Shown here in pieces: positions 11,401-12,374 of a stretch of DNA of 64,000 bases. The stretch comes from a virus. Its lineage: Duplodnaviria; Heunggongvirae; Uroviricota; Caudoviricetes. The stretch is from positions 97,412 through 161,411 of IMG/VR virus record IMGVR_UViG_3300036670_000258; one strand, 5' to 3'. The notes under the pieces were generated by a model. That model did no database searches, had not been told where the DNA came from, and saw nothing but the letters and a program-made list of their open reading frames with translations. Position 1 is the stretch's first letter, and each line of letters starts with the position of its first letter. Made by a program: the position numbers and the translations under genes.

Positions 11401-11670
11401 TAAAATTTAGTTTTGATTAATTAATTAGATAGGGGTGTGGTGTTCCTATCTATTACATTAGACCCTTGCATATTATGTGAGGGTTTTGTGGTATCTGGAC
11501 TTCTGATTGGCGCAATCCGGCAAGCTACCTGTTAGGGAAATGAAGTTTTCTTCACCTTGGCATGTTAAGGGCCCTTTGTGTGGTTGAGATATCACTAACA
11601 TACAGGTGGAGAGTGTCCCGGTGGGTGAATCGGTAGGGCAAGAGGTTTAAGTTGGGACTTTGAACATTGA

Positions 11671-11750
11671 TATTTAGGGATATTTAGGGATATTTAGGGA
11701 TATTTAGGGATATTTAGGGATATTTAGGGATATTTAGGGATATTTAGGTA
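11671..11750. repeat. 8 tandem copies of 10-bp unit TATTTAGGGA (iteron-like), flanked by a duplicated 27-bp segment (11655-11681 and 11758-11784)
   Basis: Read directly from the sequence. Period 10 equals one helical turn. Lies in GC-elevated non-coding island 11401-12374. Confidence 0.85.
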
Positions 11751-12264
11751 CTTAGGGACTTAGGGACTTTGAACATTGATATTTAGGGATATTTAGGTAC
11801 TTAGGAACTTAGGGTGACTTTGATGCTTAGATAGATTTATGGGTAGGATTAATATCATTACATGTGAGAACTTAAATCACGTATATATCCATTAAACATT
11901 TAAATCACTAGAACCGGCAACACAAGGGTCCTTACACGGGCAGGTGTGTAGGTAGGAATGATTCTTTAATACTTTAAGGGAATATAGGGTAAAGAGGCTG
12001 GGTTTATTTTAAGGGTTTGTGTATTACTAGGTATTTGTTATTTTATCTTATATGTATATCTAGTCGTTGTATGTTGATGTTGATTACTTGTCTTTTTTTG
12101 TGGCACATTTTATTGTTCCGGTGGGGTGGGTTTTTGGTCGACTTGGGACCTTGTGGATGTGTGGGTATAGATGATCTTGGGGTTTAATCTTGGTGTGATG
12201 TTTAATCCTATCCCATGTGGTTTCCAGTAGGGTGAGGGCATGTCAGATGGTCTTGTTAAACGAT

Positions 12265-12291
12265 GAAAGGATCCTTTATGGGGATCCTTTC
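12265..12291. other. perfect hairpin gaaaggatcc-tttatgg-ggatcctttc (BamHI-site palindrome)
   Basis: Located between convergent transcription units. Weak T-run on the plus side only. Confidence 0.4.
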
Positions 12292-12309
12292 TGGTCTACT
12301 AGGGTGGAT

Positions 12310-12374
12310 ATGTTATCCTAAGATAATATCATCTGATTTGTTTACGAAATCTTCATGTAGTTTAGTGTTTTTCA
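12310..12374 (-). pseudogene. 5' relic of an N-tag family gene (MKNTKLHEDFVNKSDDIILG*)
   Basis: Reverse complement of 12310-12374 reproduces the family start region, then terminates after 20 codons. Confidence 0.4.

Follow-up and report, generated by a model that had tools for sequence, protein, structure and literature searches.

The described systems that come closest to the phage locus analysed here are the iteron-plus-DUE replication origins, the plasmid centromeres, the concatemer junctions of T7 and T3, and the injection-stop region of T5. Origins of the first kind, such as lambda ori, RK2 oriV, and P1 oriR, are single-copy non-coding loci in which helically phased direct repeats, classically of 17-22 bp, lie beside an AT-rich stretch and a GC-rich segment. 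Type II and type III plasmid centromeres consist of 7-10 tandem units of 10-12 bp, bound cooperatively on one helical face. In T7, the genome ends carry strand-asymmetric arrays of the short repeat CCTAAAG, and the T7 and T3 concatemer junctions reportedly hold short-repeat arrays. Finally, Repeat Region 3/iss of T5 is a non-coding region of 1.2-1.7 kb with direct repeats (nine DRD copies), whose inverted repeats and palindromes keep the same order among relatives while the neighbouring ORFs vary, and whose iss, inside the 10-kb terminal repeat, has eight paired DnaA boxes (bioRxiv 10.1101/866236).

The locus at 11401-12374 of the window (the whole 64,000-nucleotide stretch of DNA under analysis) is an ORF-free gap between a plus-strand gene (10288-11400) and a minus-strand gene (12375-13103). 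The first-pass annotation had described about 1 kb devoid of credible ORFs at a junction of convergent transcription, and both statements hold: the two genes face each other, and no ORF is present in 11401-12312 under the standard, TGA-recoded, or TAG-recoded code. Open frames there extend to 64 codons when the standard stops apply and to no more than 83 when TGA or TAG is recoded, which rules out a gene hidden in an alternative code. Another ORF-poor region of the window, at 2654-3878, bears no similarity to this one. The gene-free, repeat-bearing stretch of ~0.9 kb is a conserved, transcription-insulated DNA element common to a group of large marine phages of Bacteroidota and, judging from the arrangement of its sequence, is most likely a site of protein assembly such as an origin. 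It is single-copy within the 64 kb. Among 50,697 phage records, no match was obtained with blastn of the element or with megablast of 8-16 kb; in the literature on jumbo or Flavobacterium phages, no relevant description of such an element was found.

In terms of composition, the earlier remark that GC stands clearly above the background is sustained in part, the value being raised (0.376 versus a window mean of 0.314) but only modestly so (93rd percentile of 974-nt windows). Strand asymmetry, rather than GC, is the outstanding compositional feature of the locus: its G+T content of 0.638 is the highest of all 974-nt windows in the 64 kb (mean 0.522, sd 0.029), and its C content of 0.114 lies within the lowest 0.2%. 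In every relative, the G+T-rich, C-poor strand is the coding strand of the upstream gene. Such richness of one strand in G+T would be consistent with its frequent exposure as single-stranded DNA.

The upstream gene (10288..11400, plus strand), which has its own promoter cassette at 10192-10287, codes for a 370-aa RecA-fold ATPase of the RadA/Sms type, as assigned by Pfam and PDB alignment. Its ATPase domain follows an N-terminal domain of ~100 aa, matches Pfam KaiC at 8.7e-08, aligns with RadA 5LKM over residues 104-311, and carries a KNRVG motif where RadA has KNRFG, RadA/Sms being the best full-domain match. DnaB_C reaches 22.1 bits against a Pfam cut-off of 27, and across 59 residues only. 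The neighbour had initially been taken for a DnaB/SF4-like helicase: it is indeed a RecA-fold ATPase resembling hexameric helicases, but of the RadA/Sms type, and the RadA match together with the sub-threshold DnaB_C score means that it is not a demonstrated SF4 replicative helicase. No Rep or initiator domain was matched in this ATPase, the right-hand neighbours gave no informative family matches, and most genes scanned around the locus are without a family match.

Both edges of the element are marked by hairpins. On the left, a TTAATTAG box precedes a terminator-like hairpin, the first one beyond the stop codon of the ATPase gene (11418..11452, plus strand); in this hairpin, 11426-11435 pairs with 11443-11452 around a GTGTGGT loop (-10 kcal/mol, z -1.7), in agreement with the hairpin previously noticed at 11427-11451. 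Relatives have GC-rich stems of differing sequence followed by T-runs at this position, and one of them, 4147-4173 of L063 with its TTTTTTT, is called as a terminator. The second hairpin (11460-11486), missed at first reading, is followed by TTTT (11460..11490, plus strand) and represents the intrinsic terminator of the plus-strand unit (-13.6 kcal/mol, z -4.1); in L002, A-U replaces two of its G.U pairs, which fits a function as RNA on the plus strand. On the right, the perfect 10-bp hairpin at 12265..12291 is the terminator of the minus-strand gene block, with 100% pairing between the arms 12265-12274 and 12282-12291 (-15.3 kcal/mol and z -4.6 when folded as the minus strand). It had been described as perfect and centred on GGATCC; the pairing is perfect, but GGATCC is present in each arm, so that the hairpin is not centred on a single site. 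In relatives, a minus-strand T-run comes after the homologous hairpin, and the hairpin of L003 (7746-7723) is called as a terminator. Two, perhaps three, of the three hairpins are thus ordinary terminators of the flanking genes, and they face inward on both sides of the element. Beyond the right-hand one, the relic gene start recognised by the first-pass annotation is confirmed as a 20-codon ORF (12313..12375, minus strand): read from 12375 to 12313, it encodes MKNTKLHEDFVNKSDDIILG and a stop, a truncated copy of the MKHIKLYEDFVNE tag found at the N-terminus of a downstream paralogue family of eight genes, and its ATG overlaps the stop of the gene 12375-13103 (TAATG).

Gene remnants, a slippage-prone microsatellite, and terminators are what a functionless buffer between convergent operons would be made of. 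In line with that reading, a relic gene start is present, two or three hairpins are merely terminators, and the repeat array differs between phages that are 98% related. Conservation in relatives nevertheless disfavours it. Downstream of the ATPase gene, the element recurs in ~50 distinct relatives from marine metagenomes, whose ATPases are 48-98% identical, and between the window and L002 its identity is 0.89, compared to 0.71 at the 4-fold sites of the adjacent gene; the element thus evolves more slowly than synonymous sites and is under purifying selection. Five boxes occur in the same order in 13 of 78 loci, compared to none for the reverse complement and none for shuffled sequences, and this order recurs in relatives down to 48% ATPase identity, the exactly spaced boxes persisting at ~50%. 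The compositional profile is also conserved: in GC profiles of 17 elements (the window and 16 relatives), a part of 400-550 nt with 45-65% GC, a trough of 90-120 nt at 20-28% GC, and a G-rich clamp succeed one another in most of the relatives. A mere buffer consequently seems very unlikely. Near ATPase homologues of 37-47% identity, coding sequence occupies the place where the element would be, indicating that element and ATPase are not obligatorily linked.

The fixed order runs from the terminator or terminators to a GGGTG box and GTTT(A/G)A, from which GAAC is exactly 17 or 35 nt away; short repeats, TATATAT, the AT-rich trough, the G-rich clamp, and the minus-strand terminator follow. In the window, the GC-rich left part (11535..11643, plus strand) holds the conserved GGTGGGTGA box and, by eye, one copy of a module GAAnnGTTTTC...GGCATG..AGGGCC, which in relatives is present in one to three copies reading TTTCAA..GGTAGCAGGGGCA; the GGGTG columns are conserved in alignment A4. 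The core box pair follows at 11645..11665 (plus strand), GTTTAA (11645-11650) and GAAC (11662-11665) being separated by 17 nt start to start. Among 52 distinct sequences from viral and metagenome contigs, the GTTTRA to GAAC spacing is 17 nt in 16 and 35 nt in 36, with L145 having a 17-nt pair nested within its own 35-nt pair; when bacterial genome and MAG loci are added, the distinct spacers amount to 17 of 17 nt and 47 of 35 nt. A helix between GTTTA and TGAAC was considered and set aside, the pairing being uninformative because both sides are invariant, and the palindrome between the boxes is only weakly enriched (arm length 3.55 versus 3.27 and 2.71 versus 2.26, ~2-3 sd, among sequences that are related). 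Further downstream, a TATATATCC box (11882..11890, plus strand) is kept after the GAAC boxes in most relatives. A short inverted repeat, CCTtACAC..GTGTAGG (11930..11952, plus strand; read from the sequence, without statistics), corresponds to CCCTACGCGCGCGTGTAGGG or CCCCTGGGG in relatives. The AT-rich, T-skewed trough with TTATCTTATATGTATATCTAG (12000..12100, plus strand) was delimited by GC profiles and alignment and is a candidate easily melted stretch, homologous to the 20-28% GC trough of the relatives. It is followed by a G-rich clamp, TTCCGGTGGGGTGGG... (12101..12160, plus strand), which aligns with TTATTGTGGGGGAGGGG..CCGGAC in relatives.

Between the core boxes and the downstream boxes lies a hypervariable repeat zone (11654..11815, plus strand) composed of a 35-mer pair, a 10-nt array, and 8-mers. 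TRF reports a tandem array at 11669-11748 with a period of 10, 8.0 copies, and 100% matches. The eight exact 10-mers announced by the first-pass annotation are indeed found in the register GATATTTAGG, whereas in the register originally given, TATTTAGGGA, seven copies are exact and the eighth ends in GGTA; similarly, the duplicated flank bracketing the array exists, but as an exact 35-mer (11654-11688 and 11763-11797) rather than a 27-mer. TTAGGGAC-type 8-mers occupy 11744-11813. A census of GATATTTAGG units gives 10 in the window, 10 in L001, and 13 in L002, all on a 10-bp lattice, with CATATCTATT units interspersed among them in the latter two. The array already differs in one relative whose ATPase is 98% identical; other units (GAACATTGA, TTACCACTTT, a 36-mer) occur at greater distance, and the number of short repeats at this position ranges from 1 to more than 8. 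The array of eight 10-nt units is accordingly a lineage-specific feature and not the conserved core. Several functions suggested by repeats of this kind were ruled out: the array is the sole G3+N1-7 x4 motif in the 64 kb, and a conserved G-quadruplex is dismissed as 5 of 26 relatives have such a motif in the element; a CRISPR array, in which unique spacers part repeats of 24-48 nt, is incompatible with 10-nt units placed head to tail without spacers; and a sponge of the CsrA-type GGA or Shine-Dalgarno sort does not agree with a GGA motif unconserved between subfamilies, nor with phage leaders devoid of Shine-Dalgarno sequences.

A centromere-like or regulatory protein-binding array, of the ParR, TubR, or ParB type, would use such repeats for genome positioning, for condensing, or for titrating a regulator. 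As in R1 parC, pSK41 parC, and tubC, where cooperative one-face protein binding is a feature of the system, the repeats are tandem (10-12 bp, 7-10 copies), and units of 10-11 bp on one helical face recall the type II and III plasmid centromeres. Moreover, one subfamily carries four TTACCACTTT units with phased T5 tracts, and in group B relatives a gene located 0.1-1.6 kb to the right of the element encodes a small protein with a ParB/Srx-like DGHHRL motif. However, this ParB-like domain gave no Pfam match above threshold and is missing from the corresponding genes of the window and L001, and no ParA-, ParM-, or TubZ-type gene was matched near the element, contrary to the adjacent partition NTPase and adaptor operon of the plasmid systems. 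Much of the conserved element is, in addition, non-repeat sequence. This makes a centromere quite improbable.

The length, G/U richness, and conservation of the element first pointed to RNA, and local hairpins do exist. Nevertheless, the reading as a structured non-coding RNA gene, whether known or new, is largely refuted, to the point of being scarcely credible. No tRNA or tmRNA was found in the element by ARAGORN and Rfam, the 11 tRNAs and a tmRNA-like match all lying at 61.2-63.9 kb. In Rfam searches, the window's element gave no match at gathering score (two noise matches at E<=10), and neither did that of 20 relatives. Folding of the whole region gives z -1.0 for the plus strand and +0.4 for the minus strand, and core segments fold no better than shuffled sequences (mean z about -0.3 to -0.4). 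With RNAalifold, nine diverged members gave -6.4 kcal/mol over 218 columns with a covariation term of +0.18, that is, no covariation, and 15 other sequences gave 0 pairs. With neither a tRNA-like nor a structured ncRNA gene detected, the repeats do not prove to be the RNA gene that the first-pass annotation had named as the alternative to its proposal.

Transcription from a promoter of an unrecognised class is a different matter: it could produce a G/U-rich RNA with little structure, serving as a primer or as a sponge for proteins or RNA, or the unit could form R-loops. The G+T-rich, C-poor asymmetry is what is expected of a heavily exposed non-template strand, the primary-sequence boxes could be RNA motifs, and the window's repeats contain GGA/AGGGA motifs. 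Against this, the 27 promoters of the phage all lie outside the element, a major-class promoter being absent from it in the window and in relatives; a candidate internal promoter of the phage's own class was rejected, its best PWM score being 10, compared to at least 21 for real sites, and unconserved in relatives. Sigma-70-like promoters show no excess in the element either. Furthermore, there is no plus-strand terminator on the 3' side, the terminators stop read-through from both flanks, neither structure nor covariation is seen, and the repeat motif is unconserved between subfamilies. Transcription of this kind is therefore rather unlikely.

The preferred reading, advanced tentatively, is that the element is a cis-acting DNA locus and perhaps a replication origin. 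From its organisation, we infer protein binding, melting, and origin function, in the following manner. The segment of ~11490-12260, between the inward-facing terminators, would behave as a single-copy cis-acting locus on which proteins may assemble, at the ordered boxes and the helically phased short-repeat arrays, beside an AT-rich and easily melted stretch. An initiator or loader would bind the GC-rich, repeat-bearing left part, the T-rich trough would open, and a helicase would then be loaded, while the terminators on either side would exclude flanking transcription. The iteron layout put forward by the first-pass annotation is in this respect partly upheld, with direct repeats in helical phase and an AT-rich trough beside a GC-rich repeat part, but the units are of 10 nt and no recognisable initiator gene accompanies them. 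Compared to lambda ori, RK2 oriV, and P1 oriR, the element is likewise a single-copy non-coding locus, has phased direct repeats beside AT-rich and GC-rich segments, and adjoins a replication or recombination ATPase gene. It differs in its short units, which vary between close relatives, in lacking a Rep/O-type initiator gene and a DnaA box (no TTATCCACA within 1 mismatch in 11401-12374), and in its position at a convergent, terminator-bounded junction with one strand strongly G+T-rich throughout. RadA-type ATPases are not known to act as initiators. Should the repeats be binding sites in such an origin, their binder must presumably co-vary or be tolerant, the units differing between relatives. 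As regards strand bias, cumulative GC skew has a local maximum at ~12.2 kb and no minimum, a polarity reverse to that of an origin-type switch; the skew follows gene orientation, however, which makes this test for an origin a weak one.

The main rival, prompted by assemblies that break here far above chance, is a cis site at a genome end, namely a pac site or concatemer junction, a terminal-repeat boundary, or a T5-type injection-stop region closing a block of small early genes. Among viral contigs, 33 of 78 end within 3 kb of the locus, compared to 11.8 expected, and among close relatives 8 of 24 do so, compared to 1.7. About 30 metagenome contigs stop 19-800 nt past the ATPase stop; four ends, including one with a fold-back, lie no more than ~10 nt from the GTTTAA box. 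However, the ends are scattered across the whole element, with at least one inside a tandem array (L097), a pattern attributable to hypervariable repeats that break assemblies. The near-identical 234-236 kb contigs L004-L007 begin at unrelated positions and read through the element. Where a 212-kb contig breaks off in the GTTTAA box, the terminal sequence is not repeated at its opposite end. In contig 3300042563_003307, an 875-nt overlap between the two ends was rejected as evidence of ends: it is imperfect, and hence an assembly overlap. The ORFs scanned near the locus, in the window and in L003, included no terminase.

The likeness to T7 is of the same mixed kind. On the minus strand, the window's array reads TCCCTAAATA, its unit CCCTAAAT resembling CCTAAAG, and the locus shares with the T7/T3 concatemer junctions non-coding, strand-asymmetric arrays of short motifs at 10-14 nt spacing, flanked by small palindromes. 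Nevertheless, the motif resemblance is confined to the window's lineage, other relatives having unrelated units, and these phages, with genomes of 170-256 kb, are unrelated to T7, of which fixed ends are a feature. The parallel with T5 lies in organisation, Repeat Region 3/iss being likewise non-coding and repeat-packed with its order kept (bioRxiv 10.1101/866236). Here, too, a large untranslated region of repeats and palindromes in conserved order lies by small early genes, the plus-strand block at 5.9-11.4 kb upstream of the element comprising many tiny genes with strong promoters. Unlike the T5 iss, the element has no DnaA boxes, paired or otherwise, and no sequence similarity to it, and the terminal repeat is a feature of T5. 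A genome-end site is on balance improbable, while deserving serious consideration.

It is less probable still, though conceivable, that the element is a genome landmark of a new kind in large Bacteroidota phages, either a T5-like injection-stop or terminal-repeat boundary or a G+T-rich start of recombination-dependent replication. In the latter case, a GT-rich single strand, released by a cut or nick close to the invariant GTTTAA box, would be handled by the adjacent RadA-type helicase, and the hypervariable repeats would serve as a recognition array.

The phages concerned are uncultured, have genomes of 170-256 kb, and are associated with marine hosts of the Flavobacteriia type; in them, a conserved cis element provides a handle on where replication or packaging is organised. 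GTTTRA and GAAC at a spacing of 17 or 35 nt, located downstream of a RadA-like gene on a strand rich in G+T, are a marker of the clade, and the element explains why metagenome assemblies repeatedly break at this place. Should it prove to be an origin, vectors or replication assays for Bacteroidota phages could be built on it; should it instead be a terminus or an injection-stop site, the T5-type strategy would be extended to a new group of phages.

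The genome to which the window belongs is that of a large phage of low GC content (31%), and no relatives of it were found among 50,697 deposited phage records. The element, a gene-free stretch at 11401-12374, is flanked by a plus-strand gene coding for an ATPase (10288-11400) and a minus-strand gene (12375-13103). It is non-coding, as the first-pass annotation had proposed, its longest open frame being 64 codons, or 83 with TGA or TAG read through. The annotated features at its two edges were recovered as well: a first hairpin (11426-11452), a perfect 10-bp hairpin on the right (12265-12291), and a relic gene start of 20 codons on the minus strand (12375..12313), reading MKNTKLHEDFVNKSDDIILG up to a stop, which copies the N-terminal tag MKHIKLYEDFVNE common to eight downstream genes. 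This 13-residue tag, MK(H/K)(I/V)KL(Y/F)E(D/E)F(V/I)NE, heads otherwise unrelated proteins (minus-strand starts at 13103, 13522, 14019, 14511, 14996, 16172, 23426 and 24056), is kept in distant relatives (L003, L004, L008-L010, L025, L028), occurs in one subset of relatives (group B) as a fusion with a ParB/Srx-like DGHHRL domain, and could serve as a signal for sorting or packaging.

Other properties needed adjustment. The tandem array (11669-11748; period 10, 8.0 copies, 100% identity) holds eight exact copies in the register GATATTTAGG, whereas the register first given, TATTTAGGGA, yields seven, and the duplicated flank, exact at 11654 and 11763, is a 35-mer rather than a 27-mer. The GC content is indeed raised (0.376, 93rd percentile), but only moderately, the exceptional property being strand asymmetry: its G+T content (0.638) exceeds that of every other 974-nt window of the 64 kb, and C content (0.114) falls within the lowest 0.2%. 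A second ORF-poor stretch, at 2654-3878, reaches the highest GC content of the window (up to 0.43) and carries small tandem repeats at 3406-3434 (AAGGTATCA, three copies) and 3666-3692 (CTTAGAGAA, three copies); sequence similarity to the element is absent, as are Rfam matches.

Relatives were gathered with the adjacent ATPase as query from IMG/VR, JGI/ENA metagenomes, and bacterial genomes and MAGs. Almost all those with at least 48% ATPase identity have, in the same position, an ORF-free gap of 0.3-1.1 kb with convergent genes beyond it, while more distant homologues have coding sequence there; G+T is 0.56-0.64 in the clade elements versus 0.43-0.50 downstream of the distant homologues. Between the window and the related locus L002, the element is 89% identical over aligned columns, compared to 71% at 4-fold degenerate sites of the ATPase gene. 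Across the clade, the order of boxes from left to right is constant: CTTTTAATTA with a terminator, a module TTTCAA..GGTAGCAGGGGCA in one to three copies, GGGTG/GTGTGTATG, GTTT(A/G)A, GAAC(A/G)T boxes, TATATAT(C/T), a short inverted repeat (CCCTACGCGCGCGTGTAGGG or CCCCTGGGG), GGCTTAAAG, a T-rich stretch enclosing TTATCCTTAT-like boxes, a G-rich clamp, and a minus-strand terminator. GAAC follows GTTTRA at a distance of exactly 17 nt in 16 distinct sequences, the window and L145 (whose 17-nt pair is nested in its own 35-nt pair) among them, and of exactly 35 nt in 36 other distinct sequences. The five boxes that were scored are all present and correctly ordered in 13 of the 78 loci, versus none of the reverse complements or shuffled sequences.

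It is the repeats that vary between these loci. Ten GATATTTAGG units are present in the window; L001, whose ATPase is 98% identical, has 10 with three CATATCTATT units interleaved, and L002 has 13 plus five CATATCTATT, all on a 10-bp lattice. At corresponding positions, other subfamilies carry one to three or more GAACATTGA boxes spaced by 10, 11, 21 or 23 nt, a long 36-mer array, or four TTACCACTTT units; in L097, the array of 36-nt units (GAGACTGTGAACTGTGACCTGGAGGACTA...) spans 4012-4287 and extends to the contig end. Since the units differ between relatives, the eight "iterons" of the first-pass annotation are a lineage-specific expansion and do not form the conserved core. A centromere-like array ranks fourth among the readings of the element and is improbable. 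Repeats in the window also occur within genes: at least 11 small paralogues of 55-101 aa (8371-10009, plus; 5325-5806 and 54438-54743, minus) begin with MKLGK or MKLS and are built of 4-residue repeats (DSVxxSVxDSV...), hence a 12-nt periodicity in TRF, and the long TRF arrays at 20734-21782 are due to a gene (19776-22097, minus) for a 773-aa protein, probably a tail fibre, that has a Peptidase_S74 chaperone domain at its C terminus and seven stretches of collagen triple helix.

The edge hairpins are terminators. Two follow the ATPase stop codon, the second (11460-11486; -13.6 kcal/mol, z -4.1) preceding a T-run; the counterpart of the first in relatives is a GC-rich stem of other sequence with a T-run, scored as a terminator by the scan tool in locus L063 (4147-4173), and that of the right-hand hairpin precedes a minus-strand T-run (locus L003, 7746-7723). 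Transcription entering from either side is therefore kept out of the core (about 11490-12260).

A tRNA-like or structured RNA gene, an outcome of the kind that the first-pass annotation said would overturn its proposal, is largely refuted. No tRNA or tmRNA was found in the element, and no Rfam family in that of the window or of 20 relatives; folding of the 804-nt core is no more stable than that of shuffled sequence (z -1.0 for the plus strand, +0.4 for the minus strand), and GTTTAA..GAAC segments have mean folding z of -0.3 to -0.4, with weak enrichment of short palindromes between the two boxes. RNAalifold gave -6.4 kcal/mol without covariation for nine diverged members and predicted zero pairs for 15 members of the other spacing class. 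The element is thus neither a known nor a structured RNA; an unstructured transcript or R-loop unit ranks third and is rather unlikely. Elsewhere in the window, 61251-63932 holds 11 minus-strand tRNA genes and, at 61392-61542, an Rfam match to permuted tmRNA (54.8 bits; gathering score 47) not called by ARAGORN. The phage's own promoter, TTATATTTACATATAAT, is very strong, highly conserved, gene-oriented and present in 27 copies in the window, with upstream AAACTTTAACA boxes; within the element, the best PWM score is 10 versus at least 21 at real sites, and the relatives' elements lack it too. Promoter sites, e.g. 10244-10260 (plus) and 59239-59255 (minus), often have one to three AAACTTTAACA boxes ahead and a short A-rich leader without Shine-Dalgarno sequence behind, and a cassette of about 100 nt recurs nearly identically at 5143 (minus), 7936, 10001 and 10203. 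Strong primary-sequence conservation and exact spacing, with neither structure nor promoter, point to a candidate role in DNA-protein recognition.

Classical origins such as lambda ori, RK2 oriV and P1 oriR combine direct repeats with DNA that melts readily and a GC clamp, and the element resembles them in having short direct repeats, a putatively meltable stretch and a clamp. Most of 16 relatives profiled show 45-65% GC over the first 400-550 nt, then a trough of 20-28% GC over 90-120 nt and a G-rich clamp before the terminator; the homologous T-rich trough of the window lies at about 12000-12100. Against a simple origin count the lack of a DnaA box in the element and of an initiator gene, the repeat unit of only 10 nt, the transcription converging on the element, and a cumulative GC skew at a local maximum instead of a minimum. 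As to the ATPase (370 aa), Pfam matches are weak (KaiC, 8.7e-08; DnaB_C under its cut-off), but its whole ATPase domain (104-311) aligns to RadA/Sms (5LKM), KNRVG standing opposite the RadA KNRFG motif. It is a RadA-type, DnaB-like ATPase of the RecA fold, with about 100 aa of N-terminal domain; "helicase-like" was a fair description, whereas "DnaB/SF4" is unsupported. A replication origin is ranked first, albeit tentatively.

A genome-end, packaging or injection-stop site (terminus, pac or T5-iss-like) ranks second and is less probable; it would fit a physical discontinuity, which the enrichment of contig ends at the element may reflect. Of 78 viral contigs, 33 end no more than 3 kb from the ATPase gene (11.8 expected), as do 8 of 24 from close relatives (1.7 expected); about 30 metagenome contigs end 19-800 nt past the ATPase stop, that of L097 ends within its tandem array, and four (L140, L064, L168, L169) end about 10 nt or less from the GTTTAA box. 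L140 (contig Ga0206131_10014238) terminates in a 34-nt fold-back centred on the conserved GGGGTTTAA box, and ends at this box may be products of assembly or else point to a nick, a cut or a DNA end. However, near-identical contigs of 234-236 kb start elsewhere and read through the element, and a 212-kb contig ending in the GTTTAA box has no copy at its opposite end; the 875-nt end overlap of another contig is imperfect. Hypervariable repeats breaking assemblies are the economical explanation. Repeat Region 3 of T5, an untranslated region (bioRxiv 10.1101/866236), is comparable in complexity and conserved order, although it has paired DnaA boxes, which the element lacks. Origin and packaging site, as first proposed, remain the right pair of candidates, with the conserved architecture as support instead of the 10-mer array or a DnaB neighbour.

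Serine hydroxymethyltransferase and a thymidylate-synthase homologue (370 aa, with an insert of about 100 residues), encoded at 1144-2418 and 26608-27720 (both minus), together suggest modified-pyrimidine synthesis. Outside the clade, the ATPase family is almost confined to genomes and MAGs of Bacteroidota, the closest genome match (52%) coming from a Flavobacteriaceae MAG, on a contig that carries the element too, and phage gene leaders lack Shine-Dalgarno sequences; we infer a Bacteroidota host, an assignment kept at that strength because binning is no proof. The metagenome matches are marine or estuarine. Taken together, the element is a real, conserved, non-coding and transcription-insulated cis element which defines a clade of large marine phages.
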